A stretch of DNA of 64,000 nucleotides from Candidatus Deferrimicrobiaceae bacterium. GTDB lineage: Bacteria > Desulfobacterota > Deferrimicrobia > Deferrimicrobiales > Deferrimicrobiaceae. Below, in pieces: positions 30,864 to 63,562 of this stretch. The notes beneath the pieces are model-generated. The model made no database searches. It had not been told where the DNA came from and saw nothing but the letters and a program-made list of their open reading frames with translations. Positions within the stretch are counted from its first letter, which is position 1, and every line of letters begins with the position of its first letter. The DNA is taken from contig CAWBVY010000006.1 of assembly GCA_963792415.1 (NCBI GenBank), positions 480,001 through 544,000 on the forward strand. Direction: 5' to 3'. Position numbers and translations under genes: made by a program.

Positions 30864-31451
30864 TCATTTTTTCAGGAGGGAGGAAACCGCCTTCTCGAGC
30901 TCGTCCTCCCGGATCTTTCCCCCCTTCCGCAGCACCACAGTCCCGCCTTTTCCCAGTAGCAGGAGTGTCGGGGTCACCGCCACGCCATACGCGTCGGCGA
31001 CCTTCCACACCCCCTTCGCGTCCAGTTCGTCGACCAGTACCTTGAAGGTATACCCCTCCTGCCGCGCGAATCCCCCGATGACCTGCCGGAGGGGCTCCCC
31101 GTCCACGGCGACGGCGACGACGGCCAGGTCCCCGCCCGCGTACCGGTCTTGCGCCTTCTGCAGGATCGCCATTTCGGCGCGGCACGGATCGCAGAATACC
31201 GACCAGAAGAGAAGCAGGACCGGTTTCCTCGAAATCTCCTCCGAGAGGCGGAACGGATGCCCCTCGACATCGAGGACCGTGAAATCGGGGGCGATCGTCC
31301 CCGGCTCCGCGAGCCGGGTTCCTCCCCCTCCCTGGACCCCCGTGACGGGCGGGGGCTTCTCCACCTCCGCGGCCACGGGGCCGGCAAGGATCGCGAGGAG
31401 GGCAAGTATCGCCGCGAACACCGGAAAGCGTGCTCCCATAATCGCGGTCAC
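30864..31451 (-). CDS. Exported TlpA/ResA-family thiol-disulfide oxidoreductase
   Basis: Signal peptide, APDFTVLD, FWSVFCDPCRAEM, YGVAVTPT. Confidence 0.85.
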   Translation of the reverse strand: MTAIMGARFPVFAAILALLAILAGPVAAEVEKPPPVTGVQGGGGTRLAEPGTIAPDFTVLDVEGHPFRLSEEISRKPVLLLFWSVFCDPCRAEMAILQKAQDRYAGGDLAVVAVAVDGEPLRQVIGGFARQEGYTFKVLVDELDAKGVWKVADAYGVAVTPTLLLLGKGGTVVLRKGGKIREDELEKAVSSLLKK

Positions 31452-55891: not shown

Positions 55892-57802
55892 TCAGCGGGC
55901 CCTGTTGCCCTGGCCCTGCTCCAGCTGCTTAAGGCGGCCGCGCAGGTACGGATCGTTCACCTCCTCCAACCCCATGCGCAGGCTTTCAATCGCCCCCTTG
56001 CGATCCCCCATCATCAGGTACATGTTGGCCATCGTCTGGTAGGCGACGACCGGGGAGACACCGAGAAAGGTGTAATGATAGGCCTCCCGGATGATGTGCC
56101 TCGGCAGGATCCCCTTCGGGATCTCATGGGCCTTGACGTACCCTCGCAGTTCCGGAGTGTTGCGGACGAAGATGACGAACAGGCCGTCGGAGAAGACCAG
56201 CGACCAGTTCGGGTCGTTGGCGAGAAGGGGCACGATGGGGAGGATCATCCCCGAGGAGTCCATCGTCTTCAGCACCATGTACGTGATCCCGTACTTGTCG
56301 ATGACCCCCTCCCACCCGGGCATCCCCCCGGTGACCGACTGGTGCTCCATGAACACCTGCTGGTTGTACGTCCGGCCGTCGAGAAAGGTAAGGGCGCCAG
56401 GGTAGAGCTGCCAGTCGAGGAACCCGCCGATGTCGAAGAAGTTGAACATCTTTCCCGGGACGGGATTCCTCCGAAGGAATTCCGCCGCCTTGAAGGAGAA
56501 CTTGTGCTCCGTGATTCCCACGCCGTACTCCAACTGGGAGAAGGAGAACGCGAGCGTTGTTCCGCCGAAGGCGACGAGGGCGAGGACGACGACGCCGATG
56601 AGGATCGCGTGGACCGCTGCGAAGCGCGGACGGGGATCGGGTCGAACGGCGACCGCCGCCGGTTGAGGGCGCTTCTTCCCCTTTTTCTGCCGTTTCTCTT
56701 CCGGCGCCTCCGCTTTGGGTGTCACCTTGGCGGAAAACCATCCCGCCGCCTCCGACAGGAATCCGGTCAGGTGAAGCGATACCCCGGGAGAGAGGAAGAG
56801 TCCCATCATCGACACGGCCCGCGCCGAACCCCACGCCCCCTTGAATGCGATGGCGAACAGGAAGAGGTCGAGAAGGTAGACACGGCGCCCCGCCATTCCC
56901 AGGCAGAGGGACACCGCGGCGAAGACGACCGCAGCCTTGAAGTATATGTAGAATCCGGTCCCCTTCACCGGGGTCAGCTCCGAGATCGACATCAAGATGT
57001 TATTGGTGTTCCCTCCCGCTCCCCGGGAGATCATGTGGAGCGGCGCCAGCAGCCAGCCGTAGCCGTGCGGGTTCAGGCCGGAGAGGACGAGACCCGCGAC
57101 GCCCGTAACCAGGGGGGGGAGGATCCACGTCCGAAGCCTCGCCCACTGGAACTCCTTCTTCCAGGCCGCCCGGACGAGGGCGTCGGCGAAAAACGCGCCG
57201 TAGAGGCCGAACGCCATCAGGTAGGTCGGGTGACTGTTGGCCCACACGAGGATCATCGGGGGGAAAAGGTAGATCAGTTTTTTGCGGCTCCCGAAGTAAT
57301 ACTCGCTCAGGAGGAAGATCGTCATGGCGGTGAACAGGTACGTGAAGATCTCCGGCCGTGGCTGGATTCGGATGCGGAGGAACCCCGAGAACGCGAAGAT
57401 GGCAAGGACCGCGAGGAGGGGGTGCGCCCCGCGAAGCACCATGGCCCGGTAAAGGAAGAGGAAGATCCCGAAGACGACCGCCCAGACGAGGAACGAGGCC
57501 CCGTACTCCCCTGTCGCGGCGAACACCAGGTACAGAACCGCCTGGAACCCCCACTCGCCGCCGCTCCCGTTCTCCATCCCGAGGGACGGGTAGTTCCAAT
57601 GCTCGATCGACGGGATCTCTTGCTGCTTGACGATGAACCTTCCCAACGCGATGTGCGTCCCGAAGTCGCTCGTGAAGATCTTCGTGAGCATCGGCAGCGT
57701 GATGAGGAAGAGAAGGGTGAAGGCGACGATGTTCAGTTCCTTCGGGGTGAGGTCCCACCAGCGGCGTGGCGCACCGCCGGCTTCGAGCACCGGTTCCGCC
57801 AT
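55892..57802 (-). CDS. Polytopic membrane protein, putative GT-C fold glycosyltransferase with C-terminal TPR-like helices
   Basis: SDFGTHIALGR, RIQPRPEIF, WANSH, ISEL, FNFFDIGGFLDW...FLDGR; more than ten TMs. Confidence 0.65.
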   Translation of the reverse strand: MAEPVLEAGGAPRRWWDLTPKELNIVAFTLLFLITLPMLTKIFTSDFGTHIALGRFIVKQQEIPSIEHWNYPSLGMENGSGGEWGFQAVLYLVFAATGEYGASFLVWAVVFGIFLFLYRAMVLRGAHPLLAVLAIFAFSGFLRIRIQPRPEIFTYLFTAMTIFLLSEYYFGSRKKLIYLFPPMILVWANSHPTYLMAFGLYGAFFADALVRAAWKKEFQWARLRTWILPPLVTGVAGLVLSGLNPHGYGWLLAPLHMISRGAGGNTNNILMSISELTPVKGTGFYIYFKAAVVFAAVSLCLGMAGRRVYLLDLFLFAIAFKGAWGSARAVSMMGLFLSPGVSLHLTGFLSEAAGWFSAKVTPKAEAPEEKRQKKGKKRPQPAAVAVRPDPRPRFAAVHAILIGVVVLALVAFGGTTLAFSFSQLEYGVGITEHKFSFKAAEFLRRNPVPGKMFNFFDIGGFLDWQLYPGALTFLDGRTYNQQVFMEHQSVTGGMPGWEGVIDKYGITYMVLKTMDSSGMILPIVPLLANDPNWSLVFSDGLFVIFVRNTPELRGYVKAHEIPKGILPRHIIREAYHYTFLGVSPVVAYQTMANMYLMMGDRKGAIESLRMGLEEVNDPYLRGRLKQLEQGQGNRAR

Positions 57803-57828: not shown

Positions 57829-58791
57829 TCATCTCCGGATACCTCGCTGGGATTTTCTTCCGGGGGAATGCTTCCGGGCGCTACGCCTTCCGACGGCGGC
57901 TCGCGAACATGAAGATATCATAGGGTCGACGTCAGTGGGCGGGCGCCCCCGTGGCGCTGCCGGCAACGGGGCCGGGAGGGCGGCATTGCCGAACGGCCGC
58001 CGGTGAAACACCGTGGTGAGCTTGAGGCTCGGGCACCGGGTGCAGTCGAGGCAGCGCAGGCAGTCCGGGTCGGTCGGGTTCCGGTCGGGACGGATGTCGA
58101 CCGGGCAGAGATCCTGACACTTCCCGCACCGCGTGCAGGTGTCGGGATCCCAGGCGAGCTGCAGGAAGCTCGACTTGTTGAACAGGGAGAAGATCGCACC
58201 GAGGGGGCAGATCGCCCGGCAGAAGGGGCGTTTTACCATCGTCGACGTCGTGACGAAGAAGAGCACGATCGCGATCTTGACCCAGAACAGCGACCGGACC
58301 ATCGAGCGGATGCCGGCGTTCATCGTGACCCACGGAAGCCCGCCCATCAGCGTTCCCACGGGACACAGCTTCGAGAACCAGTTCTCGTGGGTGAGATACG
58401 GGATGACGAACACCAGCCCGGCCAGGACGGCATACCGCAGATACCGCGTCCAGTGCGGCAGGGACGCCTTCCACCCCCGGAACTTGTACAGGAGATCCTG
58501 TAGGGCGCCGAAGGGGCACAGGGTCCCGCACGTCATCCGCCCCACGGACGCGCCGACGACCGAAAGGGTCCCGACCGCGTACCAGGAGACGTTCCCGCCC
58601 GCCGCGAAATGCTGCAGCGTGCCGATGGGACAGGAGAGCAGCGCGGAGGGGCAGGCGTAGCAGTTCAGCAACGGGGTGCAGACGCTCTTCATCGGCCCCT
58701 GGTAGAGCGACGTCGACAGGAACCCGGGAAGCCAGGCGTTGGGAAGGACGGCCCCCAACCCCTGGAAGATCCGTCGTTTCAGATATCTCAC
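57829..58791 (-). CDS. Membrane 4Fe-4S binding protein (NapH/YccM-like)
   Basis: CTPLLNCYACP...CPIGTLQ, GRMTCGTLCPFG, FCRAICPLG, CTRCGKCQDLCP, CLRCLDC; C-terminal tail may be over-long. Confidence 0.88.
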   Translation of the reverse strand: MRYLKRRIFQGLGAVLPNAWLPGFLSTSLYQGPMKSVCTPLLNCYACPSALLSCPIGTLQHFAAGGNVSWYAVGTLSVVGASVGRMTCGTLCPFGALQDLLYKFRGWKASLPHWTRYLRYAVLAGLVFVIPYLTHENWFSKLCPVGTLMGGLPWVTMNAGIRSMVRSLFWVKIAIVLFFVTTSTMVKRPFCRAICPLGAIFSLFNKSSFLQLAWDPDTCTRCGKCQDLCPVDIRPDRNPTDPDCLRCLDCTRCPSLKLTTVFHRRPFGNAALPAPLPAAPRGRPPTDVDPMISSCSRAAVGRRSARKHSPGRKSQRGIRR

Positions 58792-58808
58792 GGGATCACC
58801 CGATCCCG
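58791..58808 (-). promoter_or_regulatory. Candidate bacterial SECIS hairpin
   Basis: CGGGATC-GGGT-GATCCCG: 7-bp stem with G-rich tetraloop starting 11 nt after the in-frame UGA. Confidence 0.65.
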
Positions 58809-58936
58809 ATGCACGACAGTCAAAGCAGCGCGCCGTTGATCAGCACCTCCGCGATCTCCTTCCGGAAGATGCCGAGCATAAGAGCCGAGACGGCCAGCAC
58901 GGCCGTGACCAGAAAGGCGACCGGGCGTCCCTTCAT
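58796..58936 (-). CDS. Putative selenocysteine-containing membrane microprotein (CD1871A-like CxxC family, here UxxC)
   Basis: MKGRPVAFLVTAVLAVSALMLGIFRKEIAEVLINGALL-TGA-LSCIGIG-stop; TGA at 58822-58820 occupies the first Cys position of CxxCIGIG; G-rich RBS; SECIS-like hairpin follows. Confidence 0.82.
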
Positions 58937-58955
58937 GCCCCCCCCGAACCCGGGA

Positions 58956-59795
58956 TCAGCCTCCGCCGTAGGAGTGCAGGCCGGAGAGAAGGAGGTTGAC
59001 GCCGAGGTAGCACATGATCGTCGCCAGGAACCCGACGATGGAGAGGATGGCGGCGCGCTTGCCGTGCCACCCGCGGGTTACCCGCGCGTGGAGGAACGCC
59101 GCGTAGATCAGCCAGATGATCAGGGACCAGGTTTCCTTCGGGTCCCACGACCAGTAGGTCCCCCAGGCGTAGTTCGCCCAGGCCGCGCCGGTGATGATCC
59201 CTACGGTGAGGAACGGGAATCCCCAGATGATCGACCGGTAGACCAGTTCGTCGAGCATCTTGCACGCCGGCAGAAGGCCCACGACCCCTTCGGAGATCTT
59301 CGCATTTTCCTGCCGGGCCTTCAGCAGGTACATCACGGCCACCCCGGCGGAGACGGCGAACGCCGCGTACCCGACGAAGCAGGTGATGACGTGGGCGTGG
59401 AGCCAGTACGACTGGAGGGCGGGCACCAGCGGCTGGATGCTGCTGTCGTTATAGACGGCGAAGACCATCGTGAGGAAGGCGATCGGCATCACGAAGCCGC
59501 CGAGGGTCCGGTTCCGGTACTTCCTCTCCACGACCAGGTAGAAGAGGTTCACCGACCAGGCGAAGAAGACGAGCGACTCGTAAAGATTCGTGACGGGGAT
59601 GCGACCGATCCCCATCTGGTACGACTCGTACCAGCGCACCCCGAGCGCCGCGGTGGATACAACCGCCCCGAGGAGGCAGACCCAGGTGCCCATGACGCCG
59701 AGCTTCTCGTTTTTCGCGTAGAGGGCGCCGAGGTACATGGCGGACGCCACACCGAACAGGACCGTGGTGAGATTGAACAGGATGACGTTGCTCAT
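58956..59795 (-). CDS. ccsA: Cytochrome c biogenesis protein CcsA/ResC (System II)
   Basis: PVTNLYESL, LQSYWLHAHV, GAAWANYAWGTYWSWDPKETW, GLHSY. Confidence 0.96.
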   Translation of the reverse strand: MSNVILFNLTTVLFGVASAMYLGALYAKNEKLGVMGTWVCLLGAVVSTAALGVRWYESYQMGIGRIPVTNLYESLVFFAWSVNLFYLVVERKYRNRTLGGFVMPIAFLTMVFAVYNDSSIQPLVPALQSYWLHAHVITCFVGYAAFAVSAGVAVMYLLKARQENAKISEGVVGLLPACKMLDELVYRSIIWGFPFLTVGIITGAAWANYAWGTYWSWDPKETWSLIIWLIYAAFLHARVTRGWHGKRAAILSIVGFLATIMCYLGVNLLLSGLHSYGGG

Positions 59796-59832
59796 TTCGA
59801 GGGGGCTCCTGCGGCGGTCCGCGGCCAGGCGG

Positions 59833-61197
59833 TCATTGGCCTGTCGCCTTCACGCCGGTCTGTAGTTTCTCGAATCTCTTCTCGAAGGCAAGCCGGTTGC
59901 GGCTGGCGGACCCCGCGAGGACGACCTCGACACGGCCGTCGGTCCCCTGCGCGAGGCGGACCCAGACGCGCTGGTGCGAGAGGAAGAACGCCATGATCAG
60001 CCCGATCACCATCAGGGCGCACCCCAGCCAGACGATGTTCACCCCGGGGTCCTTCGCGACCTGGAGCCCGGTGAACATCTTCGAACTTAAGCCCCGGAAG
60101 GAGAATACCAGGGAGTCGGCGCGTTGCCGGTCGAGGTCGGGTCGGCGCTGGACGAGCCAGAACGAGGCGGCCGGCTGCCCGGGCTTCTCGACGACCACCT
60201 GGAGGGCCGGACCGTTTCCCTGGAAGTTCTGATTGTAGTTCACCCCGGTCACGATCCCGTAGCCGTCGATCGGAACCGGCTCGTTGGCCGCGAGGGAGAG
60301 CATGTTCACCGGGGTCCCGTCCTTGCGGGCCACCGCCACCTGGGCCTTCGCGCCGCCCCCCGCCTGCCCGTAGCTCGACTGGTAGAACCAGATCCCCTTG
60401 TACTGCAGCGGGTCGTTCACCACGATCGTCTTCCGGACCACTTCCCGCCCCCCGTCGAGGACGCTGAGGTCGGATTTGTACGCCTTGGGCTGGCCGCTCG
60501 GGTACGTCTCGACGCTGAAGGAGTTGCACCGAAGCGTGAATCCGAGGTCCTGAATCAGGGTCCCCCCCCGGACGGGGACCTGCGTGATCGCGTCCCCCTC
60601 GGGGATGTTCACGTACCCCTTGAAACCGGCGACGTTGCCGACGATCGCCCCGATGAAGATGATGATGATGGAGAGGTGGGTCACATAGACGCCGAACCGG
60701 GAGGCCACACCGGTCTCGGCGTACAGGTGCACCTCGCCGCCTTCCTCGGTGACTTTCGGCTTCGCGAAGGCGCCTGAGAGCGTCTCCGCGTATTTCCCTG
60801 TCCACTCCGAAACGGTCCCCTTCTTCTTCCACCGGTCCGAGAGCGACAGCGATTTTTCGAGGCTCCCGTCGAGCTTCGTCCGCGGGTTCCGCACGACCTT
60901 GAGCATCTTCGGGAAACGGTCGATGGTGCAGCAGGTCAGGTTCACGGTGAACAGGACGAGAATCAGCAGGAACCACTTGGAGTGGTACATATCGAACAGG
61001 TTGATCCGGTCCATGAGGGCGAACGCCCAGTCCTCGTAGATCTGGTGGTACTTCTCGGGGGGCTGGTTCTGCTCGATGATCGTGCCGAGGATCGACGTGG
61101 ACGCAAGTACGATCAGGGTGAAGATCGCAAGCTTGACGGAGATAAAGAAGTCCCACACCCGATCCATCGGGGATGGAGTGCGTTTCTCATCAGCCAT
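59833..61197 (-). CDS. resB: Cytochrome c biogenesis protein ResB/CcsB
   Basis: FISVKLAI, SILGTIIEQ, DMYHSKWF, YVTHLSIIIIFIG, VNDPLQYKG, KDPGV. Confidence 0.93.
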   Translation of the reverse strand: MADEKRTPSPMDRVWDFFISVKLAIFTLIVLASTSILGTIIEQNQPPEKYHQIYEDWAFALMDRINLFDMYHSKWFLLILVLFTVNLTCCTIDRFPKMLKVVRNPRTKLDGSLEKSLSLSDRWKKKGTVSEWTGKYAETLSGAFAKPKVTEEGGEVHLYAETGVASRFGVYVTHLSIIIIFIGAIVGNVAGFKGYVNIPEGDAITQVPVRGGTLIQDLGFTLRCNSFSVETYPSGQPKAYKSDLSVLDGGREVVRKTIVVNDPLQYKGIWFYQSSYGQAGGGAKAQVAVARKDGTPVNMLSLAANEPVPIDGYGIVTGVNYNQNFQGNGPALQVVVEKPGQPAASFWLVQRRPDLDRQRADSLVFSFRGLSSKMFTGLQVAKDPGVNIVWLGCALMVIGLIMAFFLSHQRVWVRLAQGTDGRVEVVLAGSASRNRLAFEKRFEKLQTGVKATGQ

Positions 61198-61227
61198 GCG
61201 GGCCACCCTCAATTATTCGGAATAAAT

Positions 61228-61258
61228 ACTATATACTAGACTGATATCCTGACGTCAA
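61228..61258 (-). promoter_or_regulatory. Sigma-70-type promoter upstream of resB
   Basis: Minus strand TTGACG-N17-TATATA (overlapping TATAGT) in an AT-rich gap. Confidence 0.5.
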
Positions 61259-61298
61259 ACGGATACGCCATCCGCACCGAATCCGCACCGAAGAATAA

Positions 61299-61327
61299 GA
61301 GAGGGCGGGGATCTCCCCCGCCCTCTC
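61299..61327 (-). terminator. Terminator hairpin after the cytochrome c3 gene
   Basis: GAGAGGGCGGGG-ATCTC-CCCCGCCCTCTC 12-bp stem followed on the minus strand by TTATTCTT. Confidence 0.75.
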
Positions 61328-61353
61328 CCGGGTTACGCTGGATCGGGGTTCGC

Positions 61354-61701
61354 CTACTTCTTGTGGCAGCCGTCACACTTGGTGGGGCCTTTGGCCATCT
61401 TCTGGTGGCACCCCTTGCACTTCGTGTGCATGGAGTCCTTCAAAGAGACTGCGTCGCCCTTCTTCTCGGCCTTGTGGCAGGCGAAGCACGACTGCTCCTT
61501 GCCCGCTGCGTCCTTGTGGTGGCACTCCGCGCACTTGATGCCCAGCTTTTCCGCGTGCGCCTTGTGGGGAAATACCACCGGCGACTTGGACTTCTGGACG
61601 TCCTTGATCGTAGTGCTGTCAGGAGCATCCGCCGCGACGATCATGCTGGCCGAAAACACCGTCATCATCACGACTGCCATCAACATCGCGAATTTCTTCA
61701 T
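61354..61701 (-). CDS. Periplasmic tetraheme cytochrome c3 family protein
   Basis: Signal peptide; VVFPHKAH; CAECHH, CFACH, CKGCH, CDGCH plus four distal His. Confidence 0.93.
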   Translation of the reverse strand: MKKFAMLMAVVMMTVFSASMIVAADAPDSTTIKDVQKSKSPVVFPHKAHAEKLGIKCAECHHKDAAGKEQSCFACHKAEKKGDAVSLKDSMHTKCKGCHQKMAKGPTKCDGCHKK

Positions 61702-61744
61702 CCCTGCTCACCCCTTTCGAGTTTGTGGTCTACAGCATCGTGCT

Positions 61745-63562
61745 CTACAGCGATAGATTGCACCGTGCGCACCGTTCCGCTTCCTCGCGCGCGCACCGAT
61801 CCGTAAAGCTTCTTTCGACCTCGTCGAACGTCCGGCGCGCCACTTCGGGAGAGAGCCTTTCCGCCCCGCGCCGAACCCGCCATTCGGGGCGGTCGGTCAC
61901 CTGGGGCTCGGGGCGCCTGCGGTAGTTGTCCCTGTATCGCGCCCTTTTGACCTCTTTGACGGCGAGATCCTCGAAGATATTCAACGCCGCCTCCCGCCCG
62001 GAGGCGGACGCCTCGACCACGGTGCCGGGGCCGCGGACGCAATCACCGCACATATAACCGGCGATTCTAGGTTCCCCCCTGGGGAATTGCAAGCGGAAAA
62101 CGTGGCGTCCCGTGTCCGTGGGCTTCCAGGAGACTCCATCCGGCAGGAACGAGAGGTCGGCCCGGGTTCCGATCGCCATCACGACGGTGTCGGCCGGGAC
62201 CTCGAATTCGCTCCCGGGGACGGTCCGTGGGACGACCCTCCCGTCCGGGTCGAGATCGACCCGCTCCACCTTCAGCGCTTCGAACGCGGCCACCCTTCCA
62301 CCCTTCAGGAGGAAACGGTTCGCCGCGGTGCCCGGAAGGATCTTGGCCCCCTCCGAAACGGCCGCATCGATCTCCCACGCGAACGCCGGCATCGCCTCCC
62401 TGGATTCGAGACAGGCGATCGTCACTTCCGACGCGCCCATCCGGAGAGCGCACCGGGCCGCGTCGATCGCGACGTTCCCGCCGCCGATCACGACCACCCG
62501 CCCGTGGAGCGGGGGAAACCGGTGTTCCCGGACGCGCACGAGGAACGAAAGCGCGTCGTGGAATCCCTGGTCCTCCCCTCCCGCGGCAGGCAGCCGCAGC
62601 GCTTCGCGGGCTCCCACGGCGATCAGGACGGCGTCGAACCCCTCCCCGGCAAGGGAAGGGAACGTCACGTCCTTGCTGAAGGTGACCCCGCCCCGGAAGC
62701 GCACACCCCGGGCAAGGATTCGCGTCACGTCCGCGAGGAGCGCGTCCGCGGGGAACCGGAACTCCGCGGCGCCGTACCGCATCATCCCGCCGGGTTCCCC
62801 GTACGGATCGAACACCGTGACGATGGCGCCGAGCCGCGCAAGCGTGTCGGCGGCCGACAATCCCGACGCGCCGGCGCCGACGACCGCCACCCTGGGTCCC
62901 CGGACCTGGCCGCTTTCCCCGGTGCCCGGGAAAATTCCCGCCGCGTACCCAAGGTCCGCCGCGTACCGCTTGATCGCCATGATGGAAATCGGCGCGCCGA
63001 ATTCGTTCCGCACGCACACCTGCTCGCACGGATGTGGACAGGCGCGGCCGCAGAACGCCGCGAAGGGAAGTCTGTCGTGCACCAGCGCCAGCGCCTCGAG
63101 AGGCCGTCCTTCGCGCACGAGGGCGATGTAGTCCGGAACGCGGATGCGGGCCGGGCAGGCGCTCTCGCACGGAGCGGCGGCTTCGCGGGGGCCGCGCCGC
63201 GCGTCGACATACGCCATCCACCAGATCACGCCCGCCTCTACCAGGAGGAAGCCGTGTCCGTAGGTGATCCCGGATCCCACGTTGAGGACGAGACCCAGGG
63301 TCAGGGGAAGGAGGGCCGCCCAGAAGACTCCGTAGGCGATCCGGCCCGAGTAGAGATGCCCGAGCCCCGGGTAGACGAGCGAAAGGACCCCCGCCGTTTT
63401 GCGGATCCGCTCCCGCCCGATCTCCCACAGGAGACGGTCGCGCTGATCCAGCCGGCCGGAGCAGTCCCGGCACCGCTCCTCCTCGCCCGGGCGCAGGACC
63501 TCGCAGAGAACGCAATCCTTGTAGCCCGTTCGGAGGAGGTTTTCCGGAAGGAGGAAATCCAT
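61745..63562 (-). CDS. GltD/NfnB-like FAD/4Fe-4S oxidoreductase fused to an N-terminal Cys motif and TM anchor
   Basis: CVLC...CRDC, SLVYPGLGHLY plus TMs, then APCESACP, FCGRACPHPCEQVC, VGAGASGL, GGGNVAID, EEAERCARC. Confidence 0.85.
   Translation of the reverse strand: MDFLLPENLLRTGYKDCVLCEVLRPGEEERCRDCSGRLDQRDRLLWEIGRERIRKTAGVLSLVYPGLGHLYSGRIAYGVFWAALLPLTLGLVLNVGSGITYGHGFLLVEAGVIWWMAYVDARRGPREAAAPCESACPARIRVPDYIALVREGRPLEALALVHDRLPFAAFCGRACPHPCEQVCVRNEFGAPISIMAIKRYAADLGYAAGIFPGTGESGQVRGPRVAVVGAGASGLSAADTLARLGAIVTVFDPYGEPGGMMRYGAAEFRFPADALLADVTRILARGVRFRGGVTFSKDVTFPSLAGEGFDAVLIAVGAREALRLPAAGGEDQGFHDALSFLVRVREHRFPPLHGRVVVIGGGNVAIDAARCALRMGASEVTIACLESREAMPAFAWEIDAAVSEGAKILPGTAANRFLLKGGRVAAFEALKVERVDLDPDGRVVPRTVPGSEFEVPADTVVMAIGTRADLSFLPDGVSWKPTDTGRHVFRLQFPRGEPRIAGYMCGDCVRGPGTVVEASASGREAALNIFEDLAVKEVKRARYRDNYRRRPEPQVTDRPEWRVRRGAERLSPEVARRTFDEVERSFTDRCAREEAERCARCNLSL

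Follow-up and report, generated by a model that had tools for sequence, protein, structure and literature searches.

A selenocysteine microprotein paired with a NapH-like membrane polyferredoxin beside System II cytochrome c synthase genes: a candidate route for transmembrane reductant in Deferrimicrobia

The six-gene block

We analysed a 64,000-nucleotide (nt) stretch of DNA from Candidatus Deferrimicrobiaceae bacterium (assembly GCA_963792415.1, contig CAWBVY010000006.1, positions 480,001 to 544,000), here called the window, and within it a block of six open reading frames (ORFs) at 57829-63562, all on the minus strand. In block order, these encode a GltD-like flavoprotein, a cytochrome c3, ResB, CcsA, a microprotein whose gene contains an in-frame TGA codon, and a NapH-like membrane polyferredoxin. 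The intergenic gaps are 43, 141, 37, 19, and 4 nt, and no terminator-like sites were found on the minus strand within the block. A preliminary description of this DNA, made from the sequence, had presented the six genes as co-oriented and tightly spaced and the block as free of ccdA, dsbD, and resA. Both statements hold, with the addition that the genome contains a DsbD_2-family gene and two TlpA-like thioredoxins with intact CxxC.

ResB (CcsB; 59833-61212, minus strand, 459 amino acids [aa]) is the System II cytochrome c synthase subunit matched by PF05140 at an E value of 2.3e-110 (370 bits). CcsA (ResC; 58956-59795, minus strand, 279 aa), the haem-handling subunit, matches TIGR03144 at 300.2 bits, above the cut-off of 187.6, and PF01578 at 1e-56; its WWD domain has the motif WGTYWSWD at residue 211. 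By these tests, ResB and CcsA are a System II cytochrome c synthase.

The two genes upstream of resB encode redox proteins. Cytochrome c3 (61354-61701, minus strand, 115 aa) is tetrahaem and periplasmic, with CxxCH motifs at residues 57, 72, 95, and 109 and an N-terminus resembling a signal peptide. It matches PF02085 at 1e-15 (58.3 bits against a cut-off of 22.9), and its score as a TmcA-like protein in NCBIfam, 66.8 bits, is below the cut-off of 114. The membrane-anchored GltD-like Fe-S flavoprotein (61745-63562, minus strand, 605 aa) begins with a CxxC…CxxC segment, followed by a hydrophobic transmembrane (TM) helix at approximately residues 75 to 99 by hydropathy, a Fer4_20 domain expected to bind two [4Fe-4S] clusters (PF14691, 4.7e-22), and a domain binding FAD and NAD(P)H (Pyr_redox_2, PF07992, 2.5e-20). 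Its NCBIfam matches all fall under their cut-offs (TIGR01317, 174.4 against 447.7; TIGR01318, 221.7 against 482.95; PRK12771, 367.2 against 516), and what it has in common with GltD proper is only the architecture of Fer4_20 and Pyr_redox_2. We regard it as a candidate electron input to the membrane proteins downstream.

Contigs from four metatranscriptome libraries from estuary and sediment cover the stretch at 92 to 99% identity, and several of them span gene boundaries. One joins the NapH-like gene and the microprotein (X15 record 2, 58478-58961), two join the NapH-like gene, the microprotein, and CcsA (X17 record 19, 58595-59168; X18 record 27, 58667-59081), and two others join ResB with CcsA (X17 record 21) and c3 with ResB (X16 record 16). 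These contigs hint that the block is expressed and co-transcribed, given that contigs cannot prove a single transcript and that DNA may contaminate such libraries. Gaps in contig cover, and runs that shared few words with the stretch, were given no weight.

The selenoprotein and its NapH-like partner

The microprotein gene (58796-58936, minus strand) has an in-frame TGA at 58820-58822, and under translation table 11 the ORF ends there. When this TGA is read through as selenocysteine (Sec, U), the product has 46 residues with a single TM helix and the tail …NGALL-U-LSC-IGIG, after which a second TGA at 58796-58798 serves as the true stop. To survey relatives, we took the best 80 of 454 relatives found with the NapH-like protein and searched upstream of each NapH-like gene, on the same strand, for the motif [U/C]-x-[SADTG]-C-[IVL]-G-[IVL]-G. 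The closest loci belong to Candidatus Deferrimicrobium and Deferrimicrobia, and the surveyed loci also include Deferrisomatales and Rokubacteria. Of the 80 loci, 74 carried the motif just 5' of the NapH-like gene; among the other six, two start inside the NapH-like gene and have no upstream DNA (L043 and L088), and four gave no match (L063, L065, L068, and L076). The first motif position was a TGA in 64 of the 74 loci and a Cys codon in the remaining 10 (L014, L015, L030, L036, L039, L040, L085, L087, L089, and L090). Residues G22, C/U39, L40, C42, I43, G44, and G46 are invariant in the microprotein alignment.

The TGA is followed by a hairpin resembling a selenocysteine insertion sequence (SECIS) at 58792-58807 on the minus strand. 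It begins 12 nt past the UGA and consists of a 6-bp stem, GGGAUC/GAUCCC, closed by the loop GGGU. The consensus GGGRTC-GGKT-GAYYCC occurs at the same distance from the TGA in 61 of 63 unique Sec-form sequences. Across 58 distinct 42-nt sequences, 96.8% of 348 cells were paired, compared to at most 65.2% in slid controls. Two of the pairs changed on both sides, which gave 13 compensatory cells, and none of 500 shuffles equalled the observed pairing or covariation. The hairpin is missing from four distant Cys forms (L085, L087, L089, and L090). An Rfam search with the hairpin matched no SECIS family; the sole match, an SAH riboswitch at an E value of 9.2, was dismissed as chance.

The genome contains the machinery for Sec insertion: SelB (324 bits, cut-off 242), SelD (317 bits), and SelA (555 bits) each score above their cut-offs, and ARAGORN found a tRNA-SeC. 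Because the TGA aligns with Cys in relatives, the hairpin covaries, and the Sec machinery is present, we conclude from the sequences that the microprotein is a real selenoprotein, as the preliminary description had supposed when it reported a UxxC microprotein next to a membrane 4Fe-4S protein. The SelD gene (C4:526405-527208) itself carries one in-frame TGA and probably also encodes a selenoprotein. Only seven codons lie 3' of the UGA in the microprotein gene, and the 3' arm of the hairpin takes in the stop codon and stops just short of the point where the NapH-like gene starts. This position is unusual for a bacterial SECIS and could link the insertion of Sec to translation of the NapH-like gene.

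With Cys in place of Sec, the microprotein matches NF040920 ("CD1871A family CXXC motif-containing protein") at 25.4 bits (E value 9.7e-6), below the cut-off of 32, over profile positions 2 to 38 of 38. The same profile was matched at an E value of 0.01 or less by 32 of 34 aligned microproteins, the best at 1.4e-10. The layout of the microprotein is likewise of the CD1871A type: small, with an N-terminal TM helix and a C-terminal CxxC. By profile comparison it is a sub-threshold relative of this family, to which no function is assigned. A profile search recovered 2041 small Cys-form relatives at an E value of 0.001 or less among 4052 candidates; nearly all are unnamed, and one Deferrimicrobiota protein among the profile matches bears the CD1871A name. 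The U-x-x-C tail is predicted to lie at the outer face of the membrane, because the N-terminal flank of the helix has a net charge of +1.6 and the tail a net charge of -1.1. In Deferrisomatales-like lineages (L049, L052-L060, L066, L067, and L069), the microprotein reaches 81 to 137 aa: at its N-terminus, one to three additional TM helices precede the conserved final helix and its U-LSC-IGVG tail.

The gene that follows, 4 nt downstream, encodes the NapH-like membrane polyferredoxin (57829-58791, minus strand, 320 aa; PF12801 [Fer4_5] at 2.1e-16 and PF00037 [Fer4]). Most of its relatives are 262 to 306 aa long. It scores below the cut-offs of the NapH/MauN models (TIGR02163, 64.9 bits against 213.05; NF007013, 60.5 against 234). 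Seventeen Cys are invariant in 58 sequences. Four of them form two CX3CP motifs (C88/C92-P and C191/C195-P), and eight form two C-terminal 4Fe-4S motifs (C219/222/225/229-P and C244/247/250/253). The other five are C38, C44, C47, and C54, which make up an N-terminal block that includes the NCYACP…CP motif at residues 43 to 55, and C143, which lies in the motif WFSKLCP.

Hydropathy places helices at approximately residues 68 to 84, 117 to 133, and 166 to 186, and the weakly hydrophobic segment 11 to 30 may be a fourth helix. The loops at 85 to 116 and 187 to 215 are predicted to be cytoplasmic, because they are rich in Lys and Arg (the positive-inside rule), and the loop at 135 to 165 is then predicted to be outside. 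The predicted topology fits that of NapH in the accessible part of PMC5449189, which gives four helices and cytoplasmic clusters. A single-sequence AlphaFold2 model had a mean pLDDT of 45.4 and a pTM of 0.25, values too low for use, and the topology given here is that from hydropathy and charge alone. In a PDB sequence search, the NapH-like protein matched in its ferredoxin part only (best match FwdF, 2.9e-5), and no solved NapH-type membrane domain was matched.

Neighbours of the pair and its distribution against DsbD_TM

In addition to the 74 surveyed loci, 16 more genomes of the phylum were examined with a strict or a relaxed motif search (strict only for L101), and 15 of them had the pair, as 12 Cys forms and 3 Sec forms. 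On this distribution, the microprotein and the NapH-like protein are a fixed, evidently obligate, pair. The genes upstream of the pair are also conserved in relatives. ResB and/or CcsA lie upstream on the same strand in 37 of the 50 loci that have at least 5.5 kb of upstream flank, and this linkage follows the identity of the NapH-like protein: 22 of 22 loci at 60% identity or more, 12 of 17 at 50 to 60%, and 3 of 11 below 50%. In all 17 loci with room for it, the gene that precedes ResB, apart from c3 where that intervenes, encodes a GltD-like homologue. The polytopic membrane protein encoded 26 nt 3' of the NapH-like gene (55892-57802, minus strand, 636 aa) belongs to no known family and has no Pfam or NCBIfam match. 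It has homologues 3' of the NapH-like gene in close loci (for example, L011, L022, L031, L036, and L039) and may be an operon member in close relatives only.

As in the window, fewer than 400 nt separate the end of CcsA from the NapH-like gene in 22 loci. In 24 loci, a block of approximately 4 kb is inserted between CcsA and the pair, encoding a 12-haem cytochrome, a fusion of Redoxin/AhpC-TSA and TPR domains, a small cytochrome c, and a second Redoxin-TPR protein. The Redoxin-TPR proteins (for example, L033:3917-4927 and L033:5678-6829) are secreted, and their TPR parts score weakly against the CcmH/CycH TPR family, under its cut-off. They have lost both active-site Cys and may be apocytochrome chaperones.

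These cytochromes bear on the main rival to a reductant route for cytochrome maturation, which is that the pair is a respiratory wire. The NapH-like protein would then be a quinol- or NAD(P)H-linked Fe-S subunit that feeds periplasmic multihaem cytochromes for metal reduction, ResB-CcsA would only mature those cytochromes, and the microprotein would be a structural or regulatory subunit. The hallmarks of NapH/MauN, two CX3CP and two 4Fe-4S motifs, are indeed present, and cytochromes flank the pair not only in the 24 loci with the insertion but also in L061, L086, L074, and L082-L084. The lineage is rich in multihaem cytochromes according to the part of PMC9386147 available, and NapH homologues beside multihaem cytochromes were proposed to be quinol:cytochrome c oxidoreductases in the part available of PMC9012536. 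A respiratory wire, however, provides no role for an invariant redox-type U/CxxC motif that is worth the cost of keeping as Sec, and neither the ORF list nor Pfam revealed a NapG-like exported Fe-S partner within the block. It also leaves unexplained the DsbD, MauE, and rhodanese neighbours, the housekeeping contexts that contain no cytochromes, and the enrichment of the pair in genomes without DsbD_TM (all three are described below). We consider this explanation unlikely.

Where ResB-CcsA is not nearby, some loci place the pair among thiol-redox genes, and in others the recurrent neighbours are cytochromes alone. In L085 and L090 (Sedimentisphaerales), a DsbD gene with DsbD_TM and Thioredoxin_7 domains is immediately upstream of the pair, and in L074, L082, L083, and L084 the upstream genes are LptD, DUF1573, rhodanese, MauE/DoxX, and a cytochrome c554-like protein. 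The 12 annotated Cys-form pairs of the 16 further genomes sit in housekeeping contexts without ResB or CcsA: glmM/cdaA/ybbR, TatBC with FdhE, and Thiamine_BP/Ham1. In one family (f38: L104, L108, and L110), the Cys-form pair directly follows tatC, with TatA/B nearby in L104 and FdhE in L104 and L108. The TatC-linked pairs may have a tie to maturation of exported cofactor proteins. Linkage to resB-ccsA, which the preliminary description had proposed to survey, holds in the loci closest to the window and is missing from the pairs in housekeeping contexts.

The TatBC-FdhE neighbours in one family, together with the adjacency of the pair to a haem exporter/synthase, would also fit a role like that of CcoG, in which the Fe-S protein would act as a reductase on Cu(II) or Fe(III) or maintain haem iron in the ferrous state, and the CxxC/UxxC microprotein would bind or deliver metal while envelope proteins with cofactors are assembled. 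CcoG has cupric reductase activity, CxxC is a classic metal-binding motif, and the Fer4_5 membrane domain is common to both proteins. The genome has a separate CcoG-like gene, which the NapH-like protein matches weakly (25% identity over 224 residues). Alternation of Sec and Cys in UxxC, on the other hand, is typical of selenoproteins with thiol-disulfide-type redox activity rather than of metallochaperones, and by the ORF list and Pfam the block has no metal transporter gene. The DsbD, MauE, and rhodanese neighbours and the complementarity to DsbD_TM point to thiol chemistry instead, and we judge a metal or haem-iron reductase to be improbable.

We examined this complementarity in 151 genomes sampled evenly from the phylum, scoring the NapH-like protein as present at an E value of 1e-40 or less and CcdA/DsbD by the family PF02683 (DsbD_TM). 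The NapH-like protein was found in 42 genomes, DsbD_TM in 127, and ResB in 130. Cross-tabulated by hand, genomes with the pair comprised 17 without and 25 with DsbD_TM, and genomes lacking the pair comprised 7 without and 102 with it. DsbD_TM was thus missing in 17 of 42 pair-bearing genomes compared to 7 of 109 pairless genomes (Fisher odds ratio 9.9, p = 1.8e-6), and in a hand tally by family it was missing in 11 of 23 with the pair compared to 4 of 51 without (p = 2e-4); the genomes are related rather than independent, and both p-values therefore exaggerate the association. The difference persisted when only ResB-positive genomes were counted (17 of 41 with the pair, 7 of 89 without). ResB was present in 41 of the 42 pair-bearing genomes and in all 24 genomes without DsbD_TM, 17 of which carry the pair. 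The anti-correlation with ccdA suggested in the preliminary description is therefore real in part: DsbD_TM is missing more often where the pair is present, and yet many genomes have both and a DsbD gene adjoins the pair in two loci.

The genome studied here is 100% complete by markers, and a search that spanned all but 72 kb of it (C6:792001-864000) gave no DsbD_TM match. Likewise, CcdA from the congener G130 had no tblastn match in it. In G130, a dsbC-ccdA-tlpA cluster lies beside multihaem cytochrome genes (L091, G130:C22); in the syntenic place of our genome, the dsbC-like gene alone is kept (C4:347466-348194). The genome has 24 ORFs with at least three CxxCH motifs, and one ORF has as many as 26. 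A TlpA/ResA-like protein is encoded in the window at approximately 30864-31439 on the minus strand, about 27 kb from the block; it is secreted, with a thioredoxin fold and a CDPC active site, and is a possible client of any transmembrane reductant route here. A second, short pair of ResB-like and CcsA-like genes lies at C6:911097-912624 (L093). We considered whether a CcsA paralogue at C1:226289-227095 (L094, 44% identity) might belong to a second synthase; it adjoins hemA and hemC without ResB, an arrangement like that of HemX.

The retained DsbC-like gene and the MauE/DoxX and rhodanese neighbours also suit an oxidising module like DsbB or VKOR, in which electrons from periplasmic thiols would pass through the U/CxxC tail to quinone or to the Fe-S clusters. 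Against such a module, System II requires reduced CxxCH. A cytoplasmic low-potential 4Fe-4S domain and a conserved NAD(P)H flavoprotein upstream are suited to reduction, and the enrichment of the pair is specifically where the reductive DsbD_TM route is missing. Even with the interaction of NapH-type proteins with quinols, as given in the accessible part of PMC5449189, we regard an oxidising module as very improbable.

Proposed function and relation to known systems

The inference in the preliminary description, an alternative thiol- or heme-reducing conduit possibly fed by the flavoprotein, is supported in part. We tentatively propose that reductant crosses the membrane by way of Fe-S clusters and a selenothiol, in a route made up of the NapH-like protein and the Sec microprotein and recruited here to System II, a reading to which we give slightly less than even weight. 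The same guarded weight applies to its wider form, in which the reductive, CcdA-like role would be to mature cytochrome c here and, elsewhere, to reduce periplasmic thiols in general. A more specific version, which we find doubtful as a whole, is that the pair is an Fe-S disulfide (selenenylsulfide) reductase independent of CcdA/DsbD, driven by NAD(P)H through the GltD-like protein and supplying System II together with other periplasmic thioredoxin-like proteins.

In the reductase scheme, electrons from NAD(P)H would enter the FAD and then the two [4Fe-4S] clusters of the membrane-anchored GltD-like protein, and would pass from there into the NapH-like protein, to its two [4Fe-4S] clusters on the cytoplasmic side and its CX3CP cysteines. 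They would next reach C38, C44, C47, C54, and C143, in or at the outer side of the membrane, and then the U39/C42 pair of the microprotein, which presupposes contact between the two proteins. The final acceptors would be periplasmic thiol-disulfide clients, either the CxxCH motifs of apocytochromes at ResB-CcsA or TlpA-like and DsbC-like proteins. We infer this direction of flow, with the flavoprotein as its starting point, from the arrangement of genes and motifs. If it is correct, the module would take over the job done elsewhere by CcdA/DsbD.

Several observations weigh against this proposal. NapH-type proteins are known as quinol dehydrogenase subunits, and the stretch at residues 31 to 62 of the NapH-like protein, which holds the N-terminal Cys cluster, is predicted to be either outside or within the membrane. 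The pair does not simply replace DsbD_TM: 25 of the 42 pair-bearing genomes also have it, including the three closest relatives (G130, G065, and G099), and in the two Sedimentisphaerales loci the pair is beside DsbD rather than in its place. The absence of CcdA holds for the genome outside C6:792001-864000 only, and a DsbD_2-family gene is present at C1:274069-274704. We considered this gene as a hidden CcdA; by eye, its neighbours are CcoG-like, FixH-like, and P-type-ATPase-like ORFs, a cco-type cluster, and we took it to be more probably related to cbb3 oxidase or metals. The Redoxin-TPR proteins were ruled out as reducible clients of the ResA type, as their sequences have no CxxC. Finally, the Cys-form pairs in housekeeping contexts make the pair a wider module than cytochrome c biogenesis. 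The CD1871A family is named for a protein of Clostridioides, an organism that is not known to have c-type cytochromes, so the ancestral role would not be specific to cytochrome c.

To our knowledge, textbook schemes for how bacteria mature cytochrome c and isomerise periplasmic disulfides all use CcdA/DsbD-type proteins for transmembrane reductant. Were the pair to supply the missing route, the solution would differ in mechanism, being built from Fe-S clusters and a selenothiol microprotein. A function would then be gained for a widespread family of small proteins, the 2041 Cys-form relatives, and for one clade of the poorly understood NapH/YccM-type membrane polyferredoxins. Should the NAD(P)H-driven version be true, it would account for the many anaerobes that have dozens of cytochromes c and yet no CcdA. 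The microprotein also enlarges the bacterial selenoproteome by a membrane microprotein that gene callers cut at the UGA.

All parts of the module belong to known families: System II, the NapH-type polyferredoxins, and an NCBIfam family of small proteins. In the open-access literature that we searched, nothing links the NapH-like protein or the Sec microprotein to System II and no paper mentions CD1871A. Nor does that literature describe the microprotein in its Sec form, its obligate association with a separate clade of NapH-like proteins, an operon in which the GltD-like gene, ResB, CcsA, and the pair are conserved together, or the skew toward genomes without CcdA/DsbD. The preliminary description had called this an undescribed redox arm, which is apt for the linkage to ResB-CcsA and the GltD-like gene and too broad for the microprotein, whose family is already modelled as NF040920.

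Compared to known systems, the microprotein is most like CD1871A proteins, which are small and have one TM helix and a C-terminal CxxC; it differs in that it scores below the curated cut-off and has Sec in place of the first Cys. Its partner is like NapH of the NapGH quinol dehydrogenase and MauN in having a polytopic membrane domain, two CX3CP motifs, and a C-terminal di-cluster ferredoxin domain, with the Fe-S side likely cytoplasmic. Unlike them, it has the extra invariant N-terminal block C-x5-C-x2-CP-x5-CP, the WFSKLCP motif, and a CxxC/UxxC microprotein as partner, and a search of the block found no NapG/NapAB or mau genes. With CcoG/FixG/RdxB, which act in cbb3 oxidase assembly, it has in common the Fer4_5-type membrane domain and cytoplasmic 4Fe-4S clusters, and it would share a role as an assembly factor; the low identity, the lack of FixH/CcoI context, and the Sec/Cys microprotein set it apart.

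Ferredoxin:thioredoxin reductase and HdrB provide a precedent for disulfide reduction by a 4Fe-4S cluster next to cysteines. These enzymes are soluble or peripheral and were set apart, without a homology search, as unrelated in sequence. The functional comparison is with CcdA/DsbD and ResA/CcsX, the thiol-reduction arm of System II. CcdA/DsbD is a six-TM protein with two membrane cysteines that is fed by thioredoxin, whereas the pair has no PF02683 match and no sequence relation to it, relies on 4Fe-4S clusters together with a distinct Sec/Cys subunit of 46 aa, and often coexists with DsbD_TM. What the two have in common is a redox-active dithiol-type motif and the proposed job, which is the delivery of reductant through the membrane to CxxC clients in the periplasm close to ResB-CcsA, and it is to ResB-CcsA that the pair is linked, in partial complementarity to DsbD_TM.

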